This document shows, one piece after another, positions 1,973-37,980 of a DNA stretch of 64,000 nucleotides; position 1 is the stretch's first letter, and each line of letters begins with the position of its first letter. The DNA is from a virus. A model generated the notes under the pieces. That model saw only the letters and a program-made list of their open reading frames with translations. It was not told the origin of the DNA and made no database searches. Location: IMG/VR virus record IMGVR_UViG_3300006903_000012. The stretch is one strand, 5' to 3'. The position numbers and the translations under genes were made by a program.

Positions 1973-2512
1973 TTATTTATTGCTAAATTGAGTTTTGAGA
2001 ACTTCTGCAATTACATCTGCCGCCGTCGCCTTCTGAAACTGCGGCGGAACCTTTTTCTTAGCTGGTACTTGCTGCTGTGTATCTTCAGGAGCTTGCTCTT
2101 TTTGCTGTGCAGGAACTGCTGATTGTTCTTTTGGAGCTGGTTTCTCGTTTGTTGGTGCTTCCTCAGGCGCTTGCTCTTCAGTTTCTTCAACTGGCTCTTC
2201 GTTTTGCAGCCCTTGGCGCGCTTGCATTGATGCCAATCCACCTTGACTAGAAACACTATTTGGATCATCAGTCGGTTCAGGCGCTTCTGCTTTAGCCGCA
2301 CCCGCTTTTGTATACTTCATCGGATTAGCCGTCGCACCCGGATCATCATAAGTACACTCAACCCCAAAACCACCATTCAACCCAGTCCAAAAAGGACAAG
2401 TCCAACAAACTTTTGAAACGTGAACACCATCGAAATTAACAACATCACCCTGATAATGGCAATAGACCTGCCCATTCGGGTCGGTTGCATTTACATGTAT
2501 AACGTCTTCCAT
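1973..2512 (-). CDS. hypothetical protein, Cys-rich N-terminus and Pro/Glu/Gln-rich tail
   Basis: 179-aa ORF with ATG start, tightly packed with its neighbours. The C-terminal half is low-complexity (EEPVEETEEQAPEEAPTNEKPAPKEQ). Confidence 0.6.
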   Translation of the reverse strand: MEDVIHVNATDPNGQVYCHYQGDVVNFDGVHVSKVCWTCPFWTGLNGGFGVECTYDDPGATANPMKYTKAGAAKAEAPEPTDDPNSVSSQGGLASMQARQGLQNEEPVEETEEQAPEEAPTNEKPAPKEQSAVPAQQKEQAPEDTQQQVPAKKKVPPQFQKATAADVIAEVLKTQFSNK

Positions 2513-4663: not shown

Positions 4664-5795
4664 CATTTCTTGTTATCACAAAGGCTCTTTATCCTTTGTT
4701 TCTATATGTCACCATATAGTTCAGACTATATCTTCACCCAAAAACAAGGATGGCCCGCTCTCGTGGAAGAATTATTGTCCAAAATAAGGACTCACTTCTA
4801 GTCGTTACACCTTCAAGCAGTTTTCACTGCGAGCTTGGCTCGGTATTGCCTTATAAAGGTTTTCACCGACTTCACGGGCTTTATACGCGGCAGCTGCGAT
4901 GATCTTTTAAACCCTCTGTATCTCGGATCAAATTTTGCATGAATTTTTGAATGACAGCTCATGCAGACAGTAACAAGATTTTCTTTTGAATGATTATCTT
5001 TACCAAAATCAATATGATGAACCCTAAGAAGCTTCTTGGATGAACAAAGAACGCACTTATAACCATCTCGTTCTTTAATTCGTTTCTGAACCTTACCATT
5101 CCAACCAGGAGCATAGCCAACCAAAGAACCGTGCCCGTGTCGAAACCAGTGGTGTTTCTTTCCTCGATGAACATTCGGACTAGCTCGTAAAAGTTCCGAA
5201 TGTGCCTCCCTTTCTTTTGGATCATCAAACCTATTTGGTCTATACTTACAGACACACGACTTACAAAATTTAGCAGTTCTAGATTTTATCTGTTTTCCGC
5301 AATCTTTACAGAACCTTGGTTTTACAAGTTTCTTTTGCCTGCCAAATGATCTAGCATATTTAGCAAATTCAGAACCGTGAGGGAGTTGGTCTCCTGCTAA
5401 ATATTTTCTATAACAAGGCCGGCAATAACCAGTTTTTGATTTTCCGTAAGGCGGATTACTTTTATTCAGCTTAGTTTTACAAACCTTACACCTAGGACGA
5501 ATCTTTTCTTTACAGACAGGACAAAGATAAGCCCGTGGGTTTATCTTTCGATGCTTGCATCTAGGACATACTTTTTTGTAATTGTGCGCCATTCCGGCAT
5601 CCTTTGTTACTATCAAAACAGAGATAAAAACATCTACTGTATTATATCATATTCTACCGCGTAAACTTCAAAAGATATTGCCGTACACCCGGGCATCAAG
5701 TCCTTGAAACTGAGCGGGGTCTGTGTTGATTTGTAAACCAGCGGTTCACCGTTGTGGAACACACGCAACGGATAAACCGTCGAACTAAACGTCTT
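4664..5795 (-). mobile_element. composite group I intron region: decayed intron copy, HNH endonuclease ORF and an intact ribozyme core
   Basis: The intact core has R tagtcgttacac at 4799-4810 and S gttcagactatatc at 4719-4739. P4-P5-P4' (gcttggctcggtattgcc..ttcaccgacttcacgggc, 4832-4878) lies inside the 3' end of the HNH ORF. The 3' end is GAUAACAAGAAAUG at 4664. Upstream, 5598-5790 is homologous to the P2-P8 region of the sibling introns (gcggttcaccg at about 5740, and a 3'-end motif GAUAGUAACAAAGGAUG at 5598), but its P7 strands no longer pair. The 5' boundary is uncertain. Confidence 0.5.
4813..5592 (-). CDS. intron-encoded HNH homing endonuclease with multiple CxxC zinc knuckles
   Basis: ATG at 5592 after AAAGGA (the track start 5616 is TTG). 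The C-terminus LRVHHIDFGKDNHSKENLVTVCMSCHSKIH is an HNH motif. The stop codon abuts the R element. Confidence 0.75.
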   Translation of the reverse strand: MAHNYKKVCPRCKHRKINPRAYLCPVCKEKIRPRCKVCKTKLNKSNPPYGKSKTGYCRPCYRKYLAGDQLPHGSEFAKYARSFGRQKKLVKPRFCKDCGKQIKSRTAKFCKSCVCKYRPNRFDDPKEREAHSELLRASPNVHRGKKHHWFRHGHGSLVGYAPGWNGKVQKRIKERDGYKCVLCSSKKLLRVHHIDFGKDNHSKENLVTVCMSCHSKIHAKFDPRYRGFKRSSQLPRIKPVKSVKTFIRQYRAKLAVKTA

Positions 5796-6396: not shown

Positions 6397-7447
6397 CAAT
6401 CGCTCTAGCATCACTGCTAGGATTAGACTATACCTTCATCCACAAACATTATGGATGTCTGCGTGTTGCAGGTATTTTATATTTGGCTTCGAATTTTTTA
6501 ATTTTTTCAATAAGTTTAGATTCATTTTTCAAATCATCTGTTCGAAGAATAAGAAGTTTGTATCCTCTAAGTCGATAATCCTTGTTTCTTTTCTTGTCAC
6601 GTTCAAAACTTTCTTCTCGACTATGCCAATAGTTACCATCATATTCAATAATCAGGTTATGCGTTCGGTGAACAAAATCAGGTACATGTCCCGCTACCCA
6701 GACCTTGCCCGAACCAACGAAACGATAATTGAATTTATGTTCTTTAAGGATACCTAACAACTTCTTTTCGTGTGAGTTCGCATGCCGTCGACTGCTACCC
6801 ACAATCTTCTTAGCAAACTCGATAATCTCCTCAGGCGATTTCCGAGACCAAGTTTTACTAAAACTGGCCGCTCGTTTTCTGGAAATGTCATCGTTACCCC
6901 AATTAGCTGCGTACATTTTTACCCAATTTTCAGGATCCGATAACCATTCAGTAGTTTGTATTGATTTTAGTTGACTGAAAGCTTCCAACTCACTAGGAGA
7001 TTTTGAATACCAAGATTTTAGAAAAGCTGCAACCCTTCTTTCTCTCACATCTGGATTATCATAGTTATTTTTCCTAAGTTTTTCTTGAAACTCAGGATCG
7101 GTATGATTTTCCGACATGATTTTGGATCGCAACTTCCTAAATTTTGGAGTTTGCTTAGATTCTCGCATCTTCTTTCTATAAACAGGGTCTTTAAACTTTT
7201 CTGACATTACCTTTCGCATTTTCTTCCGAAATGCTTCTTTCTCGGCTTCAGTCATTCGATCCCATTTAGACAGCTTTTCGCCATTCTTATTTTTCTTAGC
7301 CATAAAAATACCTGCCTCGGATTTCTCCTCAGTCGTTACGGGGCTAAATGTTTGATTACATCAGCTTCCCTCGGTGTTGTCTACTTGAGATTTCACCGAT
7401 ATAGCAGAATTTTACATACCCATTACTGGATAAGGCGACAAAAATTT
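6397..7447 (-). mobile_element. group I intron (type 2) in the capsid gene, carrying an endonuclease ORF in P8
   Basis: P1 is GCGAU|AAAUUUUUGUCGC and P2 is UAUCCAGUAAUGGGUA. The P4/P5 block is cttccctcggtgttg..ttcaccgatatagcag (7366-7410). R is cagtcgttacgggg (7330-7343) and S is agactataccttcatcc (6425-6441). A P9 hairpin CUAGCAGUGAUGCUAG is followed by ..UUG at 6397. Confidence 0.7.
6449..7303 (-). CDS. intron-encoded homing endonuclease, Vsr/PD-(D/E)XK-like (EDxHD-type) catalytic domain
   Basis: 284 aa. The N-terminus has basic repeats (K..DP.YRKKMRESK, HTDPEFQEKLRKN, NPDVRERR). The C-terminus YRFVGSGKVWVAGHVPDFVHRTHNLIIEYDGNYWHSREE..RDKKRNKDYRLRGYKLLILR fits the Vsr/DUF559-like pattern. 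Confidence 0.7.
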   Translation of the reverse strand: MAKKNKNGEKLSKWDRMTEAEKEAFRKKMRKVMSEKFKDPVYRKKMRESKQTPKFRKLRSKIMSENHTDPEFQEKLRKNNYDNPDVRERRVAAFLKSWYSKSPSELEAFSQLKSIQTTEWLSDPENWVKMYAANWGNDDISRKRAASFSKTWSRKSPEEIIEFAKKIVGSSRRHANSHEKKLLGILKEHKFNYRFVGSGKVWVAGHVPDFVHRTHNLIIEYDGNYWHSREESFERDKKRNKDYRLRGYKLLILRTDDLKNESKLIEKIKKFEAKYKIPATRRHP

Positions 7448-7693: not shown

Positions 7694-8023
7694 CATGGTT
7701 ATCCACTATTACTAGTGGCATGGACTATTCCTTCATCCGCGATTTGCGGAGCCTGCGTATTGCAAGTTACTTATTACTTGCCTCGCCTTTCGGCTCAGTC
7801 TCTACGGGGTCACGAAGACTTCCCTCGGAATTATCCATCTTATGATAATGGATTTTATCTTTCTCAATAGTAAGATAATCAAAAACAATCTCATTCTCAG
7901 AAAGATATTTTTCAATGTCTAAAAGTTGATTAGTTGTTAGCATAAGTTTGGACTTATCCGATATGAGCAGGTTATTATTGCAAGCAATTACTCGCTTGCC
8001 AGGCTATCATTGAGATTTCCTTA
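7694..8023 (-). mobile_element. group I intron (type 2) in the capsid gene, no intact endonuclease ORF
   Basis: P1 is GGGU|U..AGCCU and P2 is GCAAGCGAGUAAUUGCUUGC. R is cagtctctacgggg (7796-7809) and S is ggactattccttcatcc (7722-7738). P9 is CCACUAGUAAUAGUGG followed by ..AUG at 7694. A 150-nt insertion in P5 holds only a short ORF remnant starting at 7943. Confidence 0.65.
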
Positions 8024-8041: not shown

Positions 8042-8955
8042 CAAGTTCCCATCTATTACTAGATGGCTTAGACTATACCTTCAAAGGCCGCGTATTATCA
8101 AGACAAAATAAAAGTCTCGATCTCGGATTTCTCCTCAGTCGTTACGGGGTCAAACTTTTACAAGTCGACTTCCCTCGGTATTACCCTCGTCTTCAGCGGT
8201 CGGGTTTCACCGATATGAGCGGCGTGCCGGGCCATTTCTTATTTTCCGATAAAGGCCGGAAAGCTAATTTTCTGCTTCCTGCTTCCGATCAATTTCTGCA
8301 TCACTTTCTCATCGAAGCTTTTTATCTTATCAGCTACCTGCCCAATATTTTTTAACTCTTCAGCCCAAAGAATCAGAACCGAAAATCCTTGCTTTTTGAT
8401 ATACTCAATACGCTTCACATCATAGCACCGCATTTTTCCATCTTTCCTATGATGGGTATACCCAAAAACATCGATAACAGCTTTAGCGTCCACTCGACAA
8501 AAATCAGGGCAGAATCTGCCAATCATTAGTCGACCATTCCCAACATACTCATACGGCAGATCCATCAATTTTAGAATATCCCGCACTTGCTGTTCGGGTA
8601 ATGATAACGGACGATTCCACAACGAGCTAGAAAGTCTTTCAGCACCATAAGTCGGATCTGTCTTATACAAAATTCTAGACTTCTTCCTTGCCTTCTTGGC
8701 GGCCTTACTTCTAACATCAGTTGTTAAGTGAGCTAGCCCGGTTTTCTCAAAAAGACCCTGCTTCATTCTTATTGAGTGTTCCTTACCCTGTTTAGCTGTT
8801 TTCTTTTTTCCTTCGGGTGTAGCATGATACAACTTCTTTGACTTTGAAATCTTCTTTGCGACTGCTTCACGTTCCTTTGCTGAACGGTTCTTCCAAAGTC
8901 TTTTTGCAGCTATTGAACATTTAATGCCTTTACTGGTCTTTTGCATATAGAATTA
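8042..8955 (-). mobile_element. group I intron (type 2) in the capsid gene, endonuclease ORF in the P1 loop
   Basis: The 5' splice site is GGGGU|UAAUUC at 8956/8955. The ORF starts 11 nt into the intron. The IGS-like GGCCC follows the ORF stop. The P4/P5 block is cttccctcggtatta..ttcaccgatatgagcgg (8169-8222). R is at 8136-8149 and S at 8069-8086. P9 is CCAUCUAGUAAUAGAUGG. Confidence 0.65.
8239..8946 (-). CDS. intron-encoded homing endonuclease, Vsr/PD-(D/E)XK-like (EDxHD-type)
   Basis: 235 aa. The C-terminus LPYEYVGNGRLMIGRFCPDFCRVDAKAVIDVFGYTHHRKDG..KRIEYIKKQGFSVLILW is paralogous to ORFs 6449, 9290 and 21560. Confidence 0.7.
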   Translation of the reverse strand: MQKTSKGIKCSIAAKRLWKNRSAKEREAVAKKISKSKKLYHATPEGKKKTAKQGKEHSIRMKQGLFEKTGLAHLTTDVRSKAAKKARKKSRILYKTDPTYGAERLSSSLWNRPLSLPEQQVRDILKLMDLPYEYVGNGRLMIGRFCPDFCRVDAKAVIDVFGYTHHRKDGKMRCYDVKRIEYIKKQGFSVLILWAEELKNIGQVADKIKSFDEKVMQKLIGSRKQKISFPAFIGK

Positions 8956-9261: not shown

Positions 9262-10270
9262 CATCATTTTCAGTTACCTGAAAGATAGACTATACCTTCA
9301 TCCTCTTTCGAGGAGCTCTGCGTATTACCGTATTGGTTTCTTTTAGTCGTTCCGACTTTTGTATCCTCTTATCAAAAATCAATAATTTAACCGCTAAGGA
9401 TTCCAAATCTTGTAATTCATCTTCATCGATAACTAAAGTCTGATATCCTTGAGATTTTATGTACTCAGTTCTTTTCTCAACTCGATCTCTCAGCTTTTTG
9501 GTCTTCTGATATGCCTTATGCCGAAAGCCACCTAGCTCAATCAAGGCGCGATAATCGTCTCTCTTAAAATCAGGACAATACCGTCCAATCATCAGTTTAC
9601 CATTACCAACAAATTCATAAGGTAATCCCAGTAGCTGTAAAAACGATTCAAGTTGGATCTCAATTCTGGACATCGAGCGCTTATTTAGAATTTTAGAAAC
9701 AGTATCAGCATGAACATCGCAAGATTTGTAATGCTCGTTTATTGATTTCTTAAACTTCTTCCTTCGAACAAGTCCGCCAATTTTCCAAATTTTCTTCTGT
9801 ATCTCAGATAGATACTTCCGATGAGATGCTGTTCTGACAGTTTTTCGTAGCGCTGTAGTTCTTCGTTTTCGTATTTTGGGGTCTGTCCATTCCAATTTTC
9901 TCATCTCACTGCGTCGTTTCTGCTTATCTGGATCAGAGTAATAGATATCTTGTTGTCGCTTTGCTCTTTCTTTTATTTTGCTAGGAGTCAGAATCCGCTT
10001 CTGAGCGACACTCTTCGCTTTATTTACCCTCTTAAGTTCTGACTTAGATATCTTATACTTGTATGCTCGTACTGGCTTTCCTGTTCTTGGACTTGTTCTA
10101 ATTTTATTTTTCCGGCTCAAGGCCAATCCTCCTACTTTACAATACGGTCTCGCCTTTCGGCTCAGTCGTTACGGGGTCACGAAGACTTCCCTCGGTGTTG
10201 TCCCTGTGGGAGTTCACCGATATGAGCAGAGTTGTTTCATGTGTATTACTACACAAGGAGACCTTAGTTG
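9262..10270 (-). mobile_element. group I intron (type 2) in the capsid gene, endonuclease ORF in P8
   Basis: P1 is GAGAU|CAACUAAGGUCUC and P2 is UGUGUAGUAAUACACA. The P4/P5 block spans 10187-10230. R is cagtcgttacgggg (10163-10176) and S is agactataccttcatcc (9287-9303), which contains the ORF stop. P9 is UUUCAGGUAACUGAAA followed by AUGAUG at 9262. Confidence 0.7.
9290..10126 (-). CDS. intron-encoded homing endonuclease, Vsr/PD-(D/E)XK-like (EDxHD-type)
   Basis: 278 aa with a basic repeat-rich N-terminus. The C-terminus is LPYEFVGNGKLMIGRYCPDFKRDDYRALIELGGFRHKAYQ..KRTEYIKSQGYQTLVI. Confidence 0.7.
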   Translation of the reverse strand: MALSRKNKIRTSPRTGKPVRAYKYKISKSELKRVNKAKSVAQKRILTPSKIKERAKRQQDIYYSDPDKQKRRSEMRKLEWTDPKIRKRRTTALRKTVRTASHRKYLSEIQKKIWKIGGLVRRKKFKKSINEHYKSCDVHADTVSKILNKRSMSRIEIQLESFLQLLGLPYEFVGNGKLMIGRYCPDFKRDDYRALIELGGFRHKAYQKTKKLRDRVEKRTEYIKSQGYQTLVIDEDELQDLESLAVKLLIFDKRIQKSERLKETNTVIRRAPRKRMKV

Positions 10271-10532: not shown

Positions 10533-11021
10533 CATTTTGTTACTTAGGAAGTGATTCTATAAATTCATCTATTGTTGCGAACTCTGTGTAGCGTCCATTG
10601 ATTATATCTTCGTCTACTTTGGCTTCTTTCTGTTGCCATTCCTTTGTCCAAAACCATTGCTGATCTAACAAAGAACTTGCTAACAACAGACTAGTCCAGA
10701 TACTGACAAGTCGTCCGTTTGATTTCCTCAAAGCTATATAATCAAACAAGAAGACCCTTGGAACCTGAAGCAATCGACCAAACCAAGAACGTCGCTTCAA
10801 TGGATAAACCATAACTTATCTCCTAAGGATCAATCATTTCTGTTGATCTCTTACACTTCTAATTTGTGCAAGTTCAGACTATCTCTTCGTCTTGAAAGAC
10901 GCTATCCGTATAGTCGTTACACATTTAGTTAATTGATTAACTTTTAGCTCGGGATTAGCGTCGCAGCCTTCCCCGAATTAGGATAGATCGCATAAATAAA
11001 TCTTATGCCCCTCACTATTGA
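10533..11021 (-). mobile_element. group I intron (type 1) in the capsid gene, with a 90-aa ORF near its 3' end
   Basis: P1 is CCU|UCA-AUAG-UGAGGG with a U.G pair at 11022. P2 is GCAUAAGAUUUAUUUAUGC. The P4/P5 block is agctcgggattagcgtcgcagccttccccgaatta (10944-10980). R is tagtcgttacac (10911-10922) and S is gttcagactatctc (10872-10885). The ORF runs 10812 -> 10540, and the 3' end is GUAACAAAAUG at 10533. Confidence 0.65.
10540..10812 (-). CDS. intron-encoded protein of unknown function (no nuclease motif seen)
   Basis: ATG preceded by AGGAGAUAAGUU. 90 aa, MVYPLKRRSWFGRLL...WTKEWQQKEAKVDEDIINGRYTEFATIDEFIESLPK. It lies between the S element and the predicted 3' splice site. Confidence 0.5.
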   Translation of the reverse strand: MVYPLKRRSWFGRLLQVPRVFLFDYIALRKSNGRLVSIWTSLLLASSLLDQQWFWTKEWQQKEAKVDEDIINGRYTEFATIDEFIESLPK

Positions 11022-15800: not shown

Positions 15801-16216
15801 ATTTGTGACTCAAAACTTTTAACAAGTTCCTTTGCTGCACTTGTCACATCGGCATCAGATGCTTTATATGGATCAGGTCTCTTTTGTCTCATCTTCCCGG
15901 CATGTGTTCCTTGATCGTGCTTGCCGGGAAAGTGCTTTTCCGATAACGATTTCTGATTCTGCTTAGCAACAAATGCTAACAATTCATCAGGATCAATTTC
16001 TATTTCTCCGCCACCGAAATTATGTGCGCCAAGATGCGCTTCTGGAATCGATTTCTCGTGCTTGAAATACTCGACTTCAGCCAGACGCTTTGTGGCCCAG
16101 TCTTTACTAGGTCCGCAACCTAGATTTCTTTTTCCGTCTTCACTAACCACACACCACTGATTGCCTTTTTTCTTAATCCGCTTTTCAACCAACTCGCTGA
16201 TTACAAAGTCGGCCAT
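12896..16216 (-). CDS. large virion polyprotein with C-terminal HK97-type prohead protease domain
   Basis: 1106 aa with five copies of KH(L/F)PG(K/Q)HDQ..H(A)G. The C-terminal 200 or so aa (about 12896-13500) read FDRDIEGDKVTKAFYEEAI..ASVAHYS..RISMGFYP..HFAFTRVPVVAETLV, which resembles S78/U35 prohead proteases, with an inserted CDCG..CPKCG ribbon. Confidence 0.65.
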   Translation of the reverse strand: MADFVISELVEKRIKKKGNQWCVVSEDGKRNLGCGPSKDWATKRLAEVEYFKHEKSIPEAHLGAHNFGGGEIEIDPDELLAFVAKQNQKSLSEKHFPGKHDQGTHAGKMRQKRPDPYKASDADVTSAAKELVKSFESQITSDLVRSGRAKSKKQAADVWINQMSNDVKLNYVADTIPALPDSGRTVLAEFFVSNGDRDNFDWKSVDYDRGDFDDANLQVDRFISDNIFSNQQYKKSMTEKHFPTAACPKCGSTVEDPHIGRGTHKCSKCGHEYQPHNEVEKARQNYLLQKSLFVAAVEKHLPGKHDQQSHAGYGQSHLSDLKKFGPGTRAGRGAGRDLLRQLRQSSEIEDLTPETQHDINSAVSALSRELDKPRKIYNYTSAERDAWRNVIELATSALDDIEFETDEETKSLLPKGYHRFLYQDELREIGQLADDGSEDHKIPEVHKKYNEIHESKQKHLPGKHDQSSHGRTRTPRSPEFTKMLSEHGFKYNPLPIRGVDLYESTTGNGRNQLEHSIYIADSGKWEHHSSKGLDIYGRGKGSDFKSLKAYLAASRHILEEKHLPGQHDQSSHAGIKGASGKVAHTSAQLRDAAARQYAKDNDTSIAAAKKKVGGGAKVPTTRKVLSNRTADERQRDQKILNKLSTSELHSRIDLAQQQRARAKEDLSSTKDPTARTRLSQGIENLGEQIADYQDVLLDKVGKSLISKADQSCLKAIWSEYYKYYSGKWIAQGWNAYHAGKYSQAADAFEKARDGFQPNKNPKEYECLDAWRADAEEKSGGEQKHLPGKHDQSTHGHSNSLPGEHVIGVGEGTGNQNAFQKVAPTLSGSTNNNARRRYNSDVASNKMLSKLVDRYGTAIVGDVWSHLSRDSSDKDSISEAKKHLKNYYALNSKLADKILDDFSDAQVKKSQTLVPISFSSDVFRTEWRITKARIKDDGMMEWEATTTKFDRDIEGDKVTKAFYEEAIRRFKSKTVPPPFASVAHYSLYDCDCGYEFKSLTDYLCPKCGTERLSAGIATDIWIDGRQPKARGIFFPTALGRQLYQEVKSDIQNKIPHEDCIRISMGFYPDSDGVIKKSSNQRDFLRGWIEHFAFTRVPVVAETLVSVS

Positions 16217-19200
16217 GTTTTGTCATCCTCAATTCGTCCTAAAATTTCATAATGTTGCCGACCTACTGGCCGAGCTTGAATTTTTTGCAGCCAATTTTCT
16301 AAGGCTTGATTTGAATTGAACGCCATCACATCTGTTATTTTTGTAACCGGATCGCCAGCGTTATCAACTTCTTCTTTGACACGCACCGTTCGTCCGTCTA
16401 TTTGTAAATTCTTCAGTCGCTTTAATTTCTCAAAATTTCCACGATTGAAGAAATTCAAATCCGGCGGGCGTCCATCATCTGGATCATGTACACCAGAATA
16501 ACCAGTGCCAGTATAGAACGCTTTCTGCTCTAGCTCAGAATATTTAGAATCATATTCATCCATCCACATTCTCAAAGACAGATGATTAATACTATTAACA
16601 TGAACACTTTGATCTGGTAAATCTACATCATCAAAATAAAAATAACCTTTGCCTTTAACAAGTTCTGTTTTCGTCCTGCCCGTAACCTTCAGTGCTCGAT
16701 TAACTTGAGCAACTGTTTTAGGAGTTTTACTGAAATCCATTCCTGATTCTTTTTCCAAATTTCCTGCATGAGTCTTCTGATCGTGTTTGCCAGCTTGGTG
16801 TTTAACTAAAATCTCATACCCATCTTTTTGTAACTGTCGCGCCGCTTGTTTCAACTCACCTTCAACAATAAGACTCTTAACAACTATTGGCAACTCATCA
16901 TCGAAATCATATTTCCCATTATTACTCTTTACGACTGATCGAACTAATGCCGGCATCTCAGGTTTGTAATATTCAAACCCATAATGCAGCACCATGTCTA
17001 AAAAGTCTTCATAGTAACGCTTCAAGTTCTCGTCATTGACCGATTGTAGATCTTCTGTCTTAGCCCGGTCTTTGATAAACTGCTCAAATTCTTTTCGATA
17101 TTGTCCGGGGATTTTTTCAGCATAGCTATCAAATCCCAAAAGTGATTTTTCAGTCTTGGAATTACCAAAAAGATAAAACTCTTTTTCATTTCCCAGATAC
17201 AACCACACCCCAAACACATCCCATGTTACTGCTAATTCTTTCTCAGCCCCCATTGAAGTTAACTGGTTATCTGAAACTGTTACATGGGGTTTATATCCGC
17301 CCGCTTCCCACGTTCGATCTGGTGCCTGCCCATTCGACAACAAACCCGCCACCAAATCATCATGTAGATGTTTTAGGGCGGGTGTGATTTTGACTTCTGC
17401 CACAGACACTTCTTGCAGGGTTATTATAGTGCCGGTCAGGTTGAGTGTCAAGGATTTTTGATCGTATTCAGAACACACTTTTTCGATAGTTTTTCTTATC
17501 GCCAGTGAGTCAAAATACCGATCCATTTTTCCTAAGTAAACTAGTGTGATATGTGGCTCAGACTTTTTGAAATCTAACAGGTTAACTATCTCATTCGGGA
17601 CCGATAGAGCAATCATACAGGTATCATCATGCTCAGCTTTTTCTTCAACTATCTTCGACCCTTTGATTCCCTTAGCTCCAAAAATCTTGGCTCGGCCCGC
17701 TCGGATATCATCTATCGGCAAATCACCTACATCCACCAAAGCCGCTTCAACATACTCATCGGCATCGGTGCCCCATACAATTCCTGCATAAGCATAATTG
17801 CCGCCGAGCACATCTATCTCACTGTCACTAATTACCGGCACCAGACTATATTGTTGTAGATAATGCTGCGCATCGGCTACACTATCAAACCGAGACCGCT
17901 TACCAATTTGATCGGGCTGACCCCATGAATTCATGGGAAGAGATTTTTCTTTAATGGTTGTGCGATATGTTTTGTCGCCTTCTGGATCCTTCCAATCTGA
18001 AACAACCTTAACCTTTGTATTGCCTGGAACACCGAAATACTCAAGTCCACTCAAAGCTGATTTTAGATTCTGATAGGCCCGATCTTCATTATTTCCAGCT
18101 CCCATCTGACCAAAGGCTGAACCGATCCACGGATCACCTCCCTCGGTATCTACTAGAACAAGCCGAACTGCTCGATTAAATGCCGCCTGTGATAACTCGG
18201 CACTATATGCAAGCTCATGGTGACTTGTATCATTCTCAATCTGGCGACCCGCATACCACTTTCCATCTACTTTAATTAATAAAAGATTGAGATGTTTCTT
18301 AATTTCAGACTTTGTCGGGTGCCAGAACTTGTCTCGTTGATAGCTCCCGGGACCAAGCTCTGAGTAATATGACACACTGGGTTTACTAAATTTGTGCTCA
18401 ACCGCAGGTTTACCAATATCTTCTGGCACAGGAGTAGAAGAAAGAGCGCCGGCATGCTTTTTCTGATTATGCTTTCCCGGTTGGTGTTTCTCAACTGCTT
18501 TCTTATTTTCAGCAATAATTCGTTGCGTCTCTTGTTCCAGAATTTCTTTCAGCTTCGCATTCGACTCATCACCGTTCCAATAATGTCCGCCATCTTTCAA
18601 AAAGTCTTCGAATTCTTTTGGGTTCGACTGCAAGTTGCAATGGCAAGTCATGGGATGCGCCGGTGGATGTTGTGTTGTCTCACCGTCGAACACCGTTTCA
18701 TACTCAAAGTCTAAAGGCACAAATCCTTGCTCTTCATTTTGAGTACAAATATCACACACATCGTACCCACGCGTGATCCAACCTTTAGTCTTCAATCCCA
18801 CTGCTGTCATTTGATCTAGAGTCGCCCGAGAATCAGCCCAATTCAATTCCGTATTTACAATTGAACGAATGCGCGACTCACTTAACTTACCAGCATCTTT
18901 CTTAAATTTCAAACCAAAAAGATTCGCCTGGATATAATCGACAATTTCTTCGCTGCTCAAACCATTATCATAACCAGTCAAAATATTTTGCCGAAGGAAA
19001 TATTTTGTTCCACTATCGACATGCTGAACTAATGTGGCTGCTCGTGCATCTAACAGATCAATCACCGACGGATTAGTCAGAATGAACTGAAATTCTTTTG
19101 GTAACGTCAGTCGATCAGCCAAACCCGCTTCAAACATTTGCTGCTGAATATCTTGAACAGCCGTCAGAGAGCCTTCAGAATATGCTTGCCGCAAAATATC

Positions 19201-21270
19201 TAACAACTGATCTTGAATATCAGGCAGACAATACCAATCTTGCTCATTTAGAATATCGTCGAGTTTTTCAGATGCGGTAATTTCCGCTTTTTCTATTAAA
19301 TCAATTTTAGATTTTTCTTCATGGTTAATATTCCATTCCCAGATCTTTCCAGTTTTTGTTTCAGATATGATCTTACCCCCAAGAGCTTCGTTCATTGAAT
19401 TTGGCCGAATATTACCATGCTCAACATAAGCTCTAACAGAGTTAATACCCGACGATGCAAGTAACTTAAATATAGCATTTGCTGTTTCTTTTCCAAATCC
19501 AGAACCAGAACGTGACGAATCTATTCGATTGAAGTAGGCATAATCACGATCATTATTGGGTAACTCTACTGTTGCAGTTACTACTATATCATCTTTAGGA
19601 AGTGCATTTTCTAACCAATTTTCTTTTCTTAACCTATCGTTTATTTTAGCATCAAAGAAGAGCCTGTCGCCGGATTGAGTAACAGTTATGTCTAACCTAT
19701 CTGTGTGAATTTTACTGGGAATATTATCTTTTTTACCATACTCACCAGCATGTGATTCTTGATCGTGCTTGCCGGGGAGGTGTTTTTGTATTTCGTTATC
19801 TAACTCAACCAAACTTTTATACTCTTCAAGCGGCGCAACTAATTCTTCCAAATGCTCAATAGTTAACTGATTACCGACTTGCTTAAAAGACTCTTGCAGT
19901 AATTTGCTAAACTTCTTAACTGTCTCACTTGAGTTTCTTAATTGCTTGCCGTCCGCTAACAAATCTTCCGCCAGCGATTTAGCATATTGTTGCATCTCGC
20001 TGTAAGCACTGTCTATTTGATCGAGAGCTTCAGGTTTGTTAGCATCTTCTTGCAGGCCACCGATCGCTTCAGTATCTTGATCGATAGAATCCAGACTATC
20101 ACTAGGGAAACTATCCATACCTTCAAGCCCCGGAGCCGCTGGTAACCCGCTTGTTTTCACGTCAATAATTTTCCACGCCTCAGCTTGTTTCTGAGCATCA
20201 ATCGGTTTCAAGATCGGTTGATTACCAGTCAAAGTCATTAGCATCGTTGCACGTTTACCAGCCAGATCTGCTTGCACACTCGTCTCGCCGGTCATATCAA
20301 TTTTGAACTTGAACTTGAACCCAGATGCAGTCGACATCAGAATCTTTGTATTAATGAGATCCTCGACTAATTGAGCATAGAAACCAGTGCCCGCTCGCGA
20401 CGATACTTTTGAAGACGCTTCCACACCCGCCAATGTACGATCATGCTCAAAGATTCGCAAATCGCCAATTGACAATCCAAACGCAGCACACACCATTTCA
20501 GCAAAACGTTTGAAATTCTCAATCATATTCACATCAGCCGGCGAAAGAGTTAATGGAATAAATCTCGCCGGCTTTGTGTGATCGTACAACAGTGGCATTT
20601 TCATGGGATCAATGTCATTCCACATTTCGCGGAAACCTGTTGCCCATGCGATTGCTTCTGCTTCAGACATATCCATAACATCCAAAATCCCAGCCATCGG
20701 TGTGTTACCCAATTGCTTGAGATAATAAAGATAGATGCGCGAGAGAGCTTCAATCGATAAAAATGCACTTTCAACTGGCGCTTCTTGAAATACTTTGCGA
20801 GTCAAATCAGTTCGTGGTTGAGTAATCAAACGAATCACATCGCCACGACCAAAATAAACTCGATCTAATCCATTATAGGGATTGATCTGTACAAACGGAA
20901 TGTCGCGATCATAGGTGGGGTATAATGTTTCACCATCAATATGATAGAGACCACCAATGATTCCGTCCATTTCAGGATTCGCCACAACTTCAGCATTTCC
21001 CGCAATGGGGAGAATTAGAGCATCTTGCAGCATGCGCGACAACCATACGTCCCAACCATCACCATCATCTGCATCCGCCAGAACTTTCTCGAGATACATT
21101 TTCATCTCGCCTTGTTCTTCTGGCTTATCACTAACTATTTCCCATTCCAAAGATACAAGTTCGCGCAAGATATGCCGAATACAAAGCTTTGTAATCGGCT
21201 CCGTCGCAACTTGATACTTCCACTGAGCTACCGACAAGCGAGTTGGGTTAGCTAAATAAAGCGGTTGCAA
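16201..21270 (-). CDS. portal protein fused to GNAT-like, MuF/SPP1 gp7-like and 2H phosphoesterase-like domains (main exon)
   Basis: 1689 codons. The N-terminus has a portal-like LSVAQWKYQVATEPITKLCIRHILRELVSLEWEIV. A GNAT-like RSGSGFG..N..MNEALGG lies at about 19330-19700. A MuF-like NTELNW..CDIC..HPMTCHCNL lies at about 18630-19200. 2H motifs PHITLVY (17521-17553) and KPHVTVS (about 17270) are present. There are three His-rich motifs. The track start is TTG with no RBS, consistent with a 3' exon. Confidence 0.75.
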   Translation of the reverse strand: MQPLYLANPTRLSVAQWKYQVATEPITKLCIRHILRELVSLEWEIVSDKPEEQGEMKMYLEKVLADADDGDGWDVWLSRMLQDALILPIAGNAEVVANPEMDGIIGGLYHIDGETLYPTYDRDIPFVQINPYNGLDRVYFGRGDVIRLITQPRTDLTRKVFQEAPVESAFLSIEALSRIYLYYLKQLGNTPMAGILDVMDMSEAEAIAWATGFREMWNDIDPMKMPLLYDHTKPARFIPLTLSPADVNMIENFKRFAEMVCAAFGLSIGDLRIFEHDRTLAGVEASSKVSSRAGTGFYAQLVEDLINTKILMSTASGFKFKFKIDMTGETSVQADLAGKRATMLMTLTGNQPILKPIDAQKQAEAWKIIDVKTSGLPAAPGLEGMDSFPSDSLDSIDQDTEAIGGLQEDANKPEALDQIDSAYSEMQQYAKSLAEDLLADGKQLRNSSETVKKFSKLLQESFKQVGNQLTIEHLEELVAPLEEYKSLVELDNEIQKHLPGKHDQESHAGEYGKKDNIPSKIHTDRLDITVTQSGDRLFFDAKINDRLRKENWLENALPKDDIVVTATVELPNNDRDYAYFNRIDSSRSGSGFGKETANAIFKLLASSGINSVRAYVEHGNIRPNSMNEALGGKIISETKTGKIWEWNINHEEKSKIDLIEKAEITASEKLDDILNEQDWYCLPDIQDQLLDILRQAYSEGSLTAVQDIQQQMFEAGLADRLTLPKEFQFILTNPSVIDLLDARAATLVQHVDSGTKYFLRQNILTGYDNGLSSEEIVDYIQANLFGLKFKKDAGKLSESRIRSIVNTELNWADSRATLDQMTAVGLKTKGWITRGYDVCDICTQNEEQGFVPLDFEYETVFDGETTQHPPAHPMTCHCNLQSNPKEFEDFLKDGGHYWNGDESNAKLKEILEQETQRIIAENKKAVEKHQPGKHNQKKHAGALSSTPVPEDIGKPAVEHKFSKPSVSYYSELGPGSYQRDKFWHPTKSEIKKHLNLLLIKVDGKWYAGRQIENDTSHHELAYSAELSQAAFNRAVRLVLVDTEGGDPWIGSAFGQMGAGNNEDRAYQNLKSALSGLEYFGVPGNTKVKVVSDWKDPEGDKTYRTTIKEKSLPMNSWGQPDQIGKRSRFDSVADAQHYLQQYSLVPVISDSEIDVLGGNYAYAGIVWGTDADEYVEAALVDVGDLPIDDIRAGRAKIFGAKGIKGSKIVEEKAEHDDTCMIALSVPNEIVNLLDFKKSEPHITLVYLGKMDRYFDSLAIRKTIEKVCSEYDQKSLTLNLTGTIITLQEVSVAEVKITPALKHLHDDLVAGLLSNGQAPDRTWEAGGYKPHVTVSDNQLTSMGAEKELAVTWDVFGVWLYLGNEKEFYLFGNSKTEKSLLGFDSYAEKIPGQYRKEFEQFIKDRAKTEDLQSVNDENLKRYYEDFLDMVLHYGFEYYKPEMPALVRSVVKSNNGKYDFDDELPIVVKSLIVEGELKQAARQLQKDGYEILVKHQAGKHDQKTHAGNLEKESGMDFSKTPKTVAQVNRALKVTGRTKTELVKGKGYFYFDDVDLPDQSVHVNSINHLSLRMWMDEYDSKYSELEQKAFYTGTGYSGVHDPDDGRPPDLNFFNRGNFEKLKRLKNLQIDGRTVRVKEEVDNAGDPVTKITDVMAFNSNQALENWLQKIQARPVGRQHYEILGRIEDDKTWPTL

Positions 21271-21542
21271 TTTGTTACAAAGTCTTACAGACCTTTGAGT
21301 AAGTCATTTCTGCTCACTTCTTGCAATTCCTATTTCTTGCAAGTTCAGACTATATCATTATCTTTCTTCAAGATAGTTCCCACATAGTCGTTACACACTT
21401 CCGCAGATGCGGGTTGGCTCGGTATTTGGACTCTCACCATTCACCGAATTCGAGAACTGTTACAACATCCATTACTGGATGAAGCCGCCAAGTTGACGGG
21501 TTAAGTAGGGGGGCGGTTGCTGTATACTCGTCGGCGCAACCG
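21271..21542 (-). mobile_element. ORF-less group I intron (type 1) near the 5' end of the portal gene
   Basis: P1 is AAGU|CG..CGGCUU with a U.G pair. P2 is CAUCCAGUAAUGGAUG. The P4/P5 block is ggctcggtatttggactctcaccattcaccgaattcgag (21417-21455). R is tagtcgttacac (21385-21396) and S is gttcagactatatc (21343-21356). The 3' end is GUAACAAAUUG at 21271. Confidence 0.65.
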
Positions 21543-21563
21543 ACTTCTGTACAATAAGTTCAT
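21543..21563 (-). CDS. portal protein, proposed 21-nt exon 1 (MNLLYRS)
   Basis: The ATG at 21563 overlaps the TGA of the upstream endonuclease gene (AUGA). The exon ends at the U of the P1 U.G pair and joins in phase 0 to CAA CCG CUU (QPLYLANP..). This is an inference only. Confidence 0.35.
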
Positions 21564-22432
21564 CTGCCATCAATATTTCTCCTGAGAAATAATTTCTCAA
21601 CCCGAGCAACTTGCTCTTTTGTGTTCTTCAAAAGTTTTGTATCCCAAATCACAATAACCTTATACCCTGCATCTTTATATGCTTGAATTCTTTTCTTATC
21701 TCTTGGATTATCTTTCGCATGCCAGTAGACACCAAAAAGCTCAACAATTATTTTCTTATTGGTATTTACAAAATCTGGGTTAAACCTATTTACCCAAAAT
21801 GCACCGTTACCCACATATCTAAAACCAAATCGCTTTAGATATCTCATCAGAAGTTTTTCTGGTTTATTTGGACTTCTAGGTTCTAATCGTTTCTCAATAA
21901 CTGCATCTTTCTCACTATCTGACAAACCATCCCAATATTTTCTGAGTGATTTAGAAAGTTTATCTGACCTGAGTTGCTTAGCTTTCCTTGGTGTACGCAA
22001 CCAAGTTTCGGTAACAGATTGCGAAATCTTTTTAGCTATTTCTTGTTCTTCCTCGGCAGTTCGTCTTTTGTGTACTCGCTTAATCGCTTTCGACAAACTT
22101 TTACGAAATTCAGCATCACGCTCAGGAGTAAAGTTTCTTCTGGCTTCCGCTGATTTCCTACCAATTCGTTGTCTTTCTTCTATCGGTACCTTAGCATGTC
22201 TTTTCTTTTGAATCCTTGAAATTCGAGCACAAACTTCGGCAGAGTATTTATTGCCCTTGTTGGGCGATGGTCGACCCAAATTCTGGACAGACAGCAGAAA
22301 CTTAGTCTCATCACTCATCACTCGACCGTTGTGATGATTGATAAATCGTCTTCCAAAATTCGCTCGTTCACCACATCCACATAGACACAACGGTCCTTTT
22401 TTAGATTTAGACTTTTGTTTTCGGCCTGCCAT
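21560..22432 (-). CDS. homing endonuclease, Vsr/PD-(D/E)XK-like (EDxHD-type), apparently free-standing next to the portal intron
   Basis: 290 aa. The N-terminus has CLCGCG..HH and basic repeats. The C-terminus FRYVGNGAFWVNRFNPDFVNTNKKIIVELFGVYWHAKDNPRDKKRIQAYKDAGYKVIVIW is paralogous to the three capsid-intron ORFs. Confidence 0.7.
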   Translation of the reverse strand: MAGRKQKSKSKKGPLCLCGCGERANFGRRFINHHNGRVMSDETKFLLSVQNLGRPSPNKGNKYSAEVCARISRIQKKRHAKVPIEERQRIGRKSAEARRNFTPERDAEFRKSLSKAIKRVHKRRTAEEEQEIAKKISQSVTETWLRTPRKAKQLRSDKLSKSLRKYWDGLSDSEKDAVIEKRLEPRSPNKPEKLLMRYLKRFGFRYVGNGAFWVNRFNPDFVNTNKKIIVELFGVYWHAKDNPRDKKRIQAYKDAGYKVIVIWDTKLLKNTKEQVARVEKLFLRRNIDGR

Positions 22433-22461
22433 AATAGACTAATCTCTTTTCACCAATAAAT

Positions 22462-22914
22462 TTATACCGGCAGAATCGCCACAATTTTTACTCTAAATGT
22501 ATCTTCACTAATTGTCTGAGTCACGGTAAATCTAGTCCGTCGACTAGCACCCCGAAGTGTCAAGGTCGCTGAAGAAGCAAACATCGCAACCCCAGCCACA
22601 TCCCATCGCAATAAAAATTCATCATCAACCTGTGATCGGTGCACTAATTCTTTCGACCAATCTGTATAACTATATGTAATTTCTTCAGGTTCAGAGTCTT
22701 CGACAGAAACACTATGTGATCGAAATAATTTTGTAGTTGAATCGACTAACGCAGAATTTGCAGATCCAGATAAAGCTGCAAATAAGTTAGGATAATTCTT
22801 TCTAACCTGGGCCGCATGTTGACCTAAATCCATCAGCGCTTCATCATAAGCCACTTCACCCGAAAAGACTTTCTCTAAAGCTGCTAACACCGCATCTAAT
22901 TCTTTATTTGCCAT
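22462..22914 (-). CDS. hypothetical protein
   Basis: 150-aa ORF with ATG start, located between the zincin protein and the endonuclease gene. Confidence 0.5.
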   Translation of the reverse strand: MANKELDAVLAALEKVFSGEVAYDEALMDLGQHAAQVRKNYPNLFAALSGSANSALVDSTTKLFRSHSVSVEDSEPEEITYSYTDWSKELVHRSQVDDEFLLRWDVAGVAMFASSATLTLRGASRRTRFTVTQTISEDTFRVKIVAILPV

Positions 22915-22943
22915 ATAATATTTTCTCGATTCAATCTATCGTC

Positions 22944-23927
22944 TTATAAATTAGATTTCTCTTTAATAAAAAATGCCGATGCAGGAGGTGTCGGTTCGTC
23001 CGAATATCCTTCCCAATCATCGGGAGTTTTATCACTTAAAAAATTAGTTAGGAATTCTGCACGTTTTGGATATCGTTCAGAAAAATAATCAGGAAGAGTG
23101 TAAAACAATTCAACTGACGTTGCAAAATCTTCTGACAAATTAGTCTTACTTAGATGTGCAGAATGGATTTGTCTAGCGTTTTTCTTCTCACTATTGATTA
23201 CATTTTTCCAAAGCTTAGATCTGCTAAAACTTAAAGAACCCTTACTGGCACCCATTGCAGCGTCCAAATTATGTGCCAACTCGTGAATCGCTGACCGTTC
23301 ATCGGTATAATTCAAAACTGGTGGATGAGAGTCTTGTTCTTCAAGTGGACGACTCACTACGGAAAATGTCCCAGCAATTCCAGTAACAAACCCTTTCTTT
23401 CTAGAAAAAACTCTCTTCCTATATTTAGAAATTTCATTCTTTGCCCAAGACGGAAATCTTCCTAAAGCCTGCTCATAAACCGCTGCATCGTTCTCGTAAG
23501 TCGCAAAATTTCTAACCATCGAACCAGCATGCGTTTTCTGGTCATGCTGGCCGGGCAAATGCTTTCCAATACTTCCACTTGTCTCTTTCCGGCCCACTAA
23601 CATCTTCAATCGCCCCTTCGGCGTCAATAGCAACGTCCGAGTTGTACCACCTGCACTACCATTACTTGTTTCTAACTGCTCAACTAAACCTTGTCGCACT
23701 AATTCGTGAATCTCATTTTTGTGCTGCATCCAATAAACATCTGAAAGTGCGTGACCTTCAGTTTCTATTTTGTAGAGAATTTCAGATTCGAAATTAGATT
23801 GGCCGAGTTGAGATTCGTCGATATTAGACTTTTCAACAGATGCTCGTCTCTTCGGATCATGCAAAGAATGTATCTCAGTAACTAAATCAAGAACATAGTT
23901 CCCATCGCTATCAGTATAAATTTTCAT
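22944..23927 (-). CDS. virion-associated zincin-like metallopeptidase domain protein
   Basis: 327 aa. Contains the HExxH motif AIHELAHNLD (about 23268-23300) and one His-rich motif, KHLPGQHDQKTHAG (about 23545). Confidence 0.6.
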   Translation of the reverse strand: MKIYTDSDGNYVLDLVTEIHSLHDPKRRASVEKSNIDESQLGQSNFESEILYKIETEGHALSDVYWMQHKNEIHELVRQGLVEQLETSNGSAGGTTRTLLLTPKGRLKMLVGRKETSGSIGKHLPGQHDQKTHAGSMVRNFATYENDAAVYEQALGRFPSWAKNEISKYRKRVFSRKKGFVTGIAGTFSVVSRPLEEQDSHPPVLNYTDERSAIHELAHNLDAAMGASKGSLSFSRSKLWKNVINSEKKNARQIHSAHLSKTNLSEDFATSVELFYTLPDYFSERYPKRAEFLTNFLSDKTPDDWEGYSDEPTPPASAFFIKEKSNL

Positions 23928-37906: not shown

Positions 37907-37980
37907 AGCACCAAGCGGGACTCGAACCCACAATCTACAAATTAGAAGTTTGTCGATCTATCCAGTTGATCTATTGGTGC
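37907..37980 (-). tRNA. tRNA-Arg (anticodon UCU)
   Basis: The reverse complement folds as a canonical cloverleaf. Acceptor is GCACCAA/UUGGUGC, D arm is GAUC-AACUGGAUA-GAUC, anticodon arm is ACAAA-CUUCUAA-UUUGU and T arm is GUGGG-UUCGAGU-CCCGC. Confidence 0.9.

Follow-up and report, generated by a model that had tools for sequence, protein, structure and literature searches.

A group I intron after codon 25 of a phage portal gene and a linked free-standing endonuclease gene: a candidate for collaborative homing

The portal gene of the virus in IMG/VR record IMGVR_UViG_3300006903_000012 appears to be split after its twenty-fifth codon by a small group I intron that contains no open reading frame (ORF), and a gene for a free-standing homing endonuclease lies directly upstream of the short first exon. 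The stretch analysed, called here the window, is 64,000 nucleotides (nt) long, and all genes in its portal part are on the minus strand. We think it probable that the locus as a whole is best explained by an intron after codon 25 that is linked with the endonuclease gene in one cassette and spreads by collaborative homing (defined in PMC3984707). This reading raises several questions. Where does the portal protein begin? What might the endonuclease cut? Are the endonuclease gene and the intron partners, or only neighbours?

The first exon of the portal gene

The long portal ORF (21270..16201, minus strand) has 1689 codons and no ATG of its own; its first in-frame start is the TTG at 21270, as an initial annotation of this DNA had stated. 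Pfam places a Phage_portal domain at residues 30-335, bearing out the portal identity proposed there, and a 2H-phosphoesterase domain near residue 1300. The same annotation had described the gene as lacking both an ATG and a ribosome-binding site. This is right for the missing ATG of the long ORF and wrong for the gene, since exon 1 supplies ATG 21570 and an AGGAG at 21583-21579. No Shine-Dalgarno motif is found before TTG 21270 by reading the sequence. The parts of the gene are as follows.

21579..21583, minus strand: Shine-Dalgarno AGGAG, 8 nt upstream of ATG 21570, within the 3' end of the endonuclease ORF (read directly)
21496..21570, minus strand: portal exon 1, ATG 21570 to U21496, 25 codons, MADELIVQKSVAPTSIQQPPPYLTR (homologue alignment, tblastn, junction enumeration)
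21268..21495, minus strand: ORF-less group I intron, 228 nt, terminal omega-G 21268 (Rfam, RNAalifold, junction enumeration)
16201..21267, minus strand: portal exon 2, 1688 codons and the stop, opening CAA CCG CTT = QPL

The exon was located by homology. A protein database search with the spliced N-terminus as the initial annotation had proposed it recovered 12 portal homologues with 44-68% identity, 10 of which are full-length and uninterrupted. These intron-less proteins all (10/10) open M..(L/I)VEKSAxP(R)SIQQxPPYI(T/S)R, followed by (Q/A)P(L/Y)Y..NPT, and exon 1 of the window aligns to their N-termini without a gap. When the intron-less N-termini were compared with the whole window by tblastn, they matched at 21570-21493 (E 3e-8) and again from 21267 on. 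Splicing 21496 to 21267 rebuilds ..PPYLTR|QPLYLANPT.., in agreement with the 10 intron-less homologues. The boundaries were also sought blindly, by scoring every donor/acceptor combination against the intron-less proteins. Because of short sequence repeats at both boundaries, six registers are equal at the protein level, and the sole one with a U before the 5' site and a terminal G in the intron is 21496/21268. Homologues, tblastn and enumeration agree on the start of exon 2 at CAA 21267 (QPLYLANPT), which the initial annotation had placed correctly.

The spliced product would have 25 + 1688 = 1713 residues. The predicted junction reads ..TTAACCCGT|CAACCGCTT.. (ACCCGU|CAACCG) and an allele with joined exons would carry ..CCCTACTTAACCCGTCAACCGCTTTATTTAGC.., so that the protein would start MADELIV.. 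and the peptide spanning the junction would include YLTRQPLYLANPTR. In relatives the portal protein has about 490 amino acids (aa); what corresponds to residues ~650-900, ~1120-1200 and ~1210-1500 of the window's protein is encoded there by separate genes downstream, the last of these regions including the 2H phosphoesterase. The portal fusion also contains the motif H(L/Q)(P/A)GKH(D/N)Q(E/K)xHAG three times, near aa 505, 975 and 1490; the motif is found after the portal domain in the related proteins P0001 and P0009 too. These repeats may be processing sites or domain linkers.

The group I intron

The RF00028 model of Rfam matches 21505..21326 (minus strand) over its full length (model 1-253) with 54.7 bits against a gathering cut-off of 50, and an E value of 3.9e-11 in a scan of the 64 kb. 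A group I ribozyme just 5' of the portal ORF, as the initial annotation had it, is therefore real and far above chance. Together with the homologues and the junction enumeration, this sets the intron at 21495..21268, 228 nt without an ORF. No sense-strand ORF of at least 40 aa lies within it; only 21609..21472 touches it, and this is the frame of exon 1 running on for 24 nt. The elements of the ribozyme are listed here, all on the minus strand.

21495..21502, minus strand: 5' strand of P1, AACCCGU|C, with the 5' splice site between U21496 and C21495 (Rfam alignment)
21482..21489, minus strand: internal guide sequence GGCGGCUU, the 3' strand of P1 (sequence reading and Rfam alignment)
21481-21466, minus strand: P2 (Rfam alignment, RNAalifold)
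21472..21474, minus strand: in-frame UAA in the P2 loop, 7 codons past the 5' splice site, the exon 1 frame continuing QLGGFIQ and stop
21457-21451 / 21382-21376, minus strand: P3 (Rfam alignment, RNAalifold)
21448-21442 / 21424-21418, minus strand: P4 (Rfam alignment, RNAalifold)
within 21348..21481, minus strand: P5 (Rfam alignment, RNAalifold)
21412-21409 / 21404-21401, minus strand: P6 (Rfam alignment, RNAalifold)
21389-21385 / 21352-21348, minus strand: P7, GACUA/UAGUC (by inspection against the Rfam structure line)
21375-21370 / 21364-21359, minus strand: P8 (Rfam alignment, RNAalifold)
21343-21320, minus strand: P9 (sequence reading and RNAalifold)
21318-21298, minus strand: P9.1, loop CAGAAAUGA (sequence reading and RNAalifold)
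21297-21278, minus strand: P9.2, a third 3' hairpin, followed by the tail UAACAAAUUG (read from the sequence)

In the Rfam alignment, P1 pairs AACCCGU|C with GGCGGCUU through 7 pairs, among them the wobble U21496·G21488, and has a single C·C mismatch. From the three portal introns available (those of the window and of the relatives L135 and L005, described below; a small sample), RNAalifold returned P2, P3, P4, P5, P6, P8, P9 and P9.1, and in 24 of its 56 pairs both sides have changed and still pair. P7.1 and P7.2 helices are not evident in the portal intron. The guide GCGGCU is complementary not only to the end of exon 1 but also to AACCGC at +2..+7 of exon 2 (21266-21261), a helix that RNAalifold predicted. 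As a side observation, this AACCGC occupies the position homologous to the insertion site of the L005 intron.

Could the first exon be shorter still? The initial annotation had started the portal at an ATG at 21563, with a seven-codon exon MNLLYRS, a 5' splice site at 21543 defined by a P1 of AAGU|CG and CGGCUU, and an intron at 21542..21271. The six-base complementarity exists, the ATG does overlap the endonuclease stop as ATGA (21563-21560), and the join is in phase. However, this model discards 47 nt (21542-21496) that are coding and conserved in the family (..VAPTSIQQPPPYLTR); they encode SIQQPPPYLTR, the most conserved part of the N-terminus. It gives instead an N-terminus, MNLLYRS.., that is in the wrong frame with respect to the homologues and matches none of them. 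The P1 of Rfam is elsewhere, with its U·G at 21496, and L135 has no AAGUCG but keeps ACCCGU/GCGGCU; the CGGCUU of the proposed helix is part of the true guide-sequence stretch, 21482..21489. The proposed intron would also end in an A at 21271 rather than in the G at 21268. We give this exon model practically no credence.

A different objection is that the ribozyme is a relic that no longer splices, with the portal translated from an internal start (TTG 21270, which is in frame, or one further downstream) and without its first 25 residues. But the ORF of exon 1, its Shine-Dalgarno sequence and its conserved residues are kept in two diverged genomes, the core helices are all intact, with compensatory changes, and all three portal introns (3/3) score above the Rfam cut-off; TTG 21270, for its part, has no Shine-Dalgarno sequence before it. 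A dead intron is thus very improbable, and we infer that the intron is spliced in vivo.

How widespread is this intron? A 15-mer of P9.1, GCAGAAATGACTTAC, recurs in many related viral introns in an IMG/VR scan (L015-L133), and in the contigs that share it the flanking sequence aligns to the 3' half of the portal intron with 70-87% identity. The portal intron is therefore part of a widespread viral subfamily. Many of these IMG/VR matches to GCAGAAATGACTTAC are in other genes and none is shown within a portal gene. A pattern built on P1, ACCCGTC-N3-6-GGCGGCTT, gave more than 120 matches in IMG/VR, all of them chance matches without intron similarity, and was rejected. The core pattern TGTAACAGYTCTYGAATTCGGTGAA gave 0 matches in metagenome_contigs and viral_contigs, collections that hold neither the window nor L135. 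With 20500-23000 as query, the INPHARED phage collection gave no DNA match, hence no annotated relative. A scan of 21000-23200 for sigma-70 promoters and terminators returned nothing above the shuffled expectation.

The endonuclease gene and its place at the portal locus

Upstream of the portal exon lie two genes.

21560..22432, minus strand: free-standing homing-endonuclease gene, 290 aa, TGA stop at 21562-21560 (Pfam, PDB, Foldseek)
22462..22914, minus strand: orf150, a conserved gene with 28-31% identity (tblastn) to a gene by the portal in L003, L256, L001 and L342

The initial annotation had called 22432..21560 an endonuclease gene, and Pfam, PDB and Foldseek matches all agree. The Pfam match to DUF559 is above its cut-off (33.5 against 20.6 bits), that to Vsr falls short of its own (24.2 against 27 bits), and in the N-terminal region NUMOD3 gives a weak match of 19.5 bits, just below the cut-off of 20.4 (E 9.6e-4). 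The best phmmer match in PDB is 3R3P, the catalytic domain of I-Bth0305I (E 3e-4). An AlphaFold model has a mean predicted local distance difference test score (pLDDT) of 70.5; its C-terminal domain is mostly at 77-95, and the N-terminal 60 residues are of low confidence. With this model Foldseek again ranks 3R3P at the top (E 1.8e-5, target-normalised template modelling (TM) score 0.73), followed by 1VSR, the Vsr protein of E. coli. The residues that define the EDxHD family, E170, D196, H213 and D222 of I-Bth0305I (PMC3239194), align with E192, D220, H238 and D245. By homology and by the structural model, 22432..21560 is a free-standing EDxHD (Vsr-like) homing endonuclease with a predicted Vsr-like C-terminal fold.

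Apart from an overlap of 11 nt with portal exon 1, the ORF shares nothing with the portal coding sequence; 64 nt separate its end from the intron, which itself has no ORF. The initial annotation was right to set it outside the intron; that it abuts the intron does not hold. Taken together, the sequence evidence makes it very likely that the intron and its boundaries are as described here, and likewise the free-standing position of the endonuclease and the class to which it belongs.

Might the endonuclease nevertheless be encoded in the 5' loop of a larger intron of about 1.2 kb, whose 5' exon would lie before 22432 and could be, for instance, the end of orf150? Such an architecture does occur in the window, where an HNH ORF at 5616..4813 sits between an exon end and a ribozyme core. 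At the portal, however, the start methionine of the homologues aligns exactly with ATG 21570, which is preceded by its own Shine-Dalgarno sequence, so that no upstream exon is needed, and beside intron-less portals each homologue of orf150 is a gene in its own right that ends in its own stop. An intron-encoded endonuclease can be set aside at this locus with very little risk.

The comparison with intron-less loci also indicates how the endonuclease gene came to be there. Homologues of orf150, which has no Pfam match, lie directly upstream of an intron-less portal in L003 and L256, and one ORF of ~195 aa away from it in L001 and L342; the endonuclease gene is therefore an insertion. No relative of it is present at the 8 distinct intron-less loci (L001/L002, L003, L004, L256, L257, L342, L343, L344). 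The ~195-aa ORF (L001 9421-10023, L342 1921-2499) has no Pfam match, and the slot between orf150 and the portal, filled by this ORF or by the endonuclease gene, may be an insertion hot spot. Besides the identical sequence of the source genome, 5.8 billion proteins contain a single close relative of the endonuclease, P0014.

A second copy of the cassette and a displaced intron

P0014 is carried by L135, a 1128-base-pair (bp) contig of the Joint Genome Institute (JGI), in which an endonuclease ORF with its stop is followed by exon, P1, intron and exon 2. The two endonucleases are 51% identical. The exon of L135 starts at ATG 818 and has 25 codons, MAEEIIIEKAAHPVSIQRAPPYITR; GGGAG is found where the window has the portal Shine-Dalgarno sequence. 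P1 is ACCCGU|C-GAUA-GGCGGCUU, with splice site and helix identical to those of the window. The intron, of 216 nt (Rfam 51.9 bits), ends ..UUUG and is followed by CAACCGCTTTAT, that is QPLY. Endonuclease and intron are thus together in both the window and L135 (2/2) and both absent at the 8 intron-less loci, and a predicted cassette of endonuclease gene, 25-codon exon and intron is kept in two phages between which half of the endonuclease residues differ.

The third portal intron, in L005, is different. It lies at 2116..2350 (235 nt, in the locus 2013-2420; Rfam 62.2 bits) and its junction is unique, ..CAACCAU|..AUAUG|UAUACC.., 7 nt downstream of the window site and in phase 1; splicing there restores YITRQPLYLQNPT. 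Its P1, AACCAU/GUGGCU, differs from the ACCCGU/GCGGCU of the window by a compensatory change from G-C to A-U. There is no endonuclease gene upstream of it. As in the window, an in-frame stop follows 1-8 codons into the intron in both L135 and L005. Do the three introns descend from one ancestor at the portal locus? They are 69-74% identical to each other and up to 75% identical to other introns of the same genome. Being no closer to each other than to those other introns, they give common descent at this locus no support. That the intron slid between site 0 and +7, or was relocated by reverse splicing, is speculation.

Scans of loci found through the portal gene returned solely intron-less or distant relatives. 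Two gene calls in the relatives deserve mention: P0010, the call for the L005 portal, began at residue ~105, its N-terminus truncated by the gene caller, and the portal of L004 (389-2328; assembly coverage 2) is split near residue 92 by a frameshift and not by an intron, which accounts for the truncated protein P0009.

A candidate for collaborative homing

How might endonuclease and intron work together? On the pre-mRNA, the last six bases of exon 1, ACCCGU, would pair with the guide GCGGCU through the U21496·G21488 wobble. Guanosine would attack after U21496, the exons would be ligated after omega-G 21268, and splicing would restore the reading frame of the 1713-aa portal fusion protein, while the in-frame UAA, seven codons past the 5' splice site, would halt ribosomes on unspliced RNA. 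Inserted between orf150 and the portal start, the endonuclease gene bears the portal ribosome-binding site in its 3' end, and endonuclease, 75-nt exon and intron would be linked in a single selfish cassette of about 1.2 kb. During a mixed infection, the endonuclease would cut portal alleles that have neither endonuclease gene nor intron, at or near the conserved PPYITR/QPLY, and repair of the break from the donor would copy endonuclease gene, exon and intron in one tract of ~1.2 kb. The donor allele would be protected by the intron splitting the target or by flanking changes. This would be collaborative (trans) homing.

Several known systems are informative here. One is F-CphI with the ORF-less psbA intron of cyanophage S-PM2 (Zeng, Bonocora & Shub 2009; as outlined in PMC3984707 and PMC6083498). 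As in the portal locus, the pair is presented in these accounts as one proposed mobile unit whose intron interrupts the endonuclease target. According to the same accounts the host gene is psbA and not a portal gene, F-CphI has an Endo VII-type catalytic motif (PMC6083498) where the portal-side enzyme is EDxHD/Vsr-like, and its cleavage at the insertion site was demonstrated, whereas for the portal-side endonuclease such cleavage is a prediction. The portal locus also differs from the arrangement outlined there in that the endonuclease gene is upstream and overlaps the start of its presumed target gene. T3 gene 5.3 with PhiI I-TslI (Bonocora & Shub 2009), to which the account in PMC3984707 applies a collaborative or trans-homing scheme, and T4 mobE with I-TevIII, a case of trans homing (PMC2790892), likewise have a free-standing endonuclease whose site is at or near the insertion site of a group I intron, and which mobilises neighbouring DNA, including an intron that is immobile by itself. 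Unlike the portal locus, the T3/PhiI and T4 cases involve HNH enzymes and DNA polymerase or nrd hosts, and come with genetic and biochemical proof.

The enzyme itself is best compared with I-Bth0305I, the EDxHD prototype, from the recA intron of Bacillus phage 0305phi8-36 (PMC3239194; PDB 3R3P). This endonuclease cuts immediately beside the insertion site of its intron and spares the intron-plus allele (PMC3239194). The two share the catalytic fold, as predicted for the portal-side enzyme, and the E/D/H/D residues, and are about 25% identical over roughly 100 residues. I-Bth0305I has N-terminal NUMOD-type DNA-binding motifs of the NUMOD2 type, and the candidate motif of the portal-side enzyme is a weak match to NUMOD3. 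I-Bth0305I is encoded inside its intron, in the P5 loop, and the portal-side endonuclease is free-standing; the paper that defined the family already mentions free-standing EDxHD genes (PMC3239194).

Alternatively, intron and endonuclease gene are independent neighbours, the latter being an ordinary free-standing gene that spread by intronless homing into the spacer between orf150 and the portal. The usual target of a free-standing phage endonuclease is a neighbouring gene (PMC2988022, PMC3984707), and several observations weigh against collaborative homing. Among IMG/VR sequences, the 80 nearest relatives of the endonuclease are free-standing and have neither a portal nearby nor an intron within 2.5 kb. 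All 80 were scanned with an nhmmer intron profile, which did recover five weak introns of the window on which it was not trained, and the closest 20 with Rfam as well; the family therefore commonly homes without introns. The related intron of L005 has no upstream endonuclease gene and can therefore exist without this endonuclease. The co-occurrence of the two comes from two genomes, which may share a single ancestral event. P10, of 3 bp in the window and of about 1 in L135, is weak, and no target motif is recognisable at the junction, where inspection by eye gave no convincing I-Bth0305I-like TTxG pseudopalindrome. Against independence, both close copies (window and L135) are coupled to an intron at the same site despite 49% protein divergence, the endonuclease is in 0/8 intron-less alleles, and the characterised member of the family cuts right at its own intron insertion site (PMC3239194). 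We consider independent neighbours unlikely, and the collaborative/trans-homing scheme of F-CphI/psbA and T3 gene 5.3/I-TslI is the most economical reading; the comparison with collaborative homing that the initial annotation had drawn is apt. The stricter claim, that the endonuclease is active and has the intron insertion site as its target, so that homing is collaborative in the full sense, is a somewhat doubtful one.

Other intervening sequences in the window

The portal is not the only interrupted gene. A capsid-like gene that is uninterrupted in the relative L001 (20170..21473) is found by tblastn in seven pieces between 4588 and 11287 on the minus strand, and hence contains at least six intervening sequences.

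11287-11021, 10531-10484, 9260-8913, 7692-7447, 6395-6288, 5876-5631 and 4662-4588, minus strand: pieces of the capsid-like gene (tblastn)
11031-10850, 10496-10305 and 4940-4702, minus strand: group I cores of the capsid-like gene above the Rfam cut-off
8294-8049, 8045-7702, 7458-7213, 6540-6404, 6297-5927 and 9386-9267, minus strand: weaker Rfam matches in the capsid-like gene
9290-10126, 8239-8946 and 6449-7303, minus strand: three DUF559/Vsr-like (EDxHD-type) endonuclease ORFs inside intervening sequences of the capsid-like gene
4813-5616, minus strand: HNH endonuclease ORF, 267 aa, with a zinc-ribbon N-terminus, between the end of the sixth capsid piece (about 5631) and the core 4940-4702

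In the nuclease domain the three EDxHD ORFs share 22-43% identity with the portal-side endonuclease, of which they are paralogues; one endonuclease family is therefore embedded in introns at the capsid-like gene and free-standing at the portal. The HNH ORF overlaps the ribozyme core 4940-4702 by about 127 nt and may sit in the 5' loop of its intron. Direct repeats of 38-55 nt with 81-91% identity are found in different intervening sequences of the capsid-like gene (7782-7836 and 10149-10203; 7302-7353/8108-8159; 7365-7402/10186-10223); they translate as a pseudo-peptide, EGSLRDPVxTEPKGE, and are probably a shared intron or endonuclease-flanking module. An ATG ORF of 90 aa (10540-10812, minus strand), which has no Pfam or PHROG match, lies after the first ribozyme core of the capsid-like gene and before the exon piece that follows. 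Counting the portal and the capsid-like late genes together, about 18 kb contain 5 endonuclease genes and no fewer than 7 intervening sequences. The sole tRNA of the window is a tRNA-Arg (anticodon TCT) at 37907-37980 on the minus strand.

Group I introns are known in phage late genes (terminase, capsid, tail; PMC8541194, PMC3706429), and PMC6669764 cites JCL1032 and Twort as examples. Among the closest parallels to the density seen here are the recently described Jug phages, with many ORF-less introns of ~200 nt and stand-alone endonucleases (PMC12880540), and Staphylococcus phage Twort, with three introns in one gene as cited in PMC6669764. In all of them, as in the window, short ORF-less group I introns and stand-alone endonucleases fragment essential or late genes. 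The phage of the window belongs to a different lineage, with metagenomic relatives only, and its introns are concentrated in the portal and capsid-like late genes.

Implications

The practical consequence is a corrected gene model: the annotation of the portal with a TTG start and 1689 aa is wrong, and the corrected gene has a 25-codon first exon and encodes 1713 aa. Micro-exons of this kind escape gene callers, and the closest relatives, L005 and L135, are equally affected. Pairing of an ORF-less intron with a separate endonuclease gene is already known from other phages, and the locus opens no new category. What it adds is a portal-gene and EDxHD-family example to the few candidate links between a free-standing endonuclease and an ORF-less intron, a linkage model thought to explain the origin of mobile introns.

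Could the locus be a natural 'pre-fusion' stage in the formation of a mobile intron, with the target of the free-standing endonuclease at the portal insertion site and the ORF-less intron serving as its immunity element? We put this forward tentatively. With three EDxHD paralogues already inside intervening sequences of the capsid-like gene, one genome would then show both ends of the Bonocora-Shub pathway. The intron of L005 could be an independent immunising insertion, or a relocation by reverse splicing, at the same endonuclease target. With the pair present in two diverged phages and embedded paralogues in the capsid-like gene, the portal locus offers a compact natural system for asking whether convergence on a target site precedes the fusion of endonuclease and intron.

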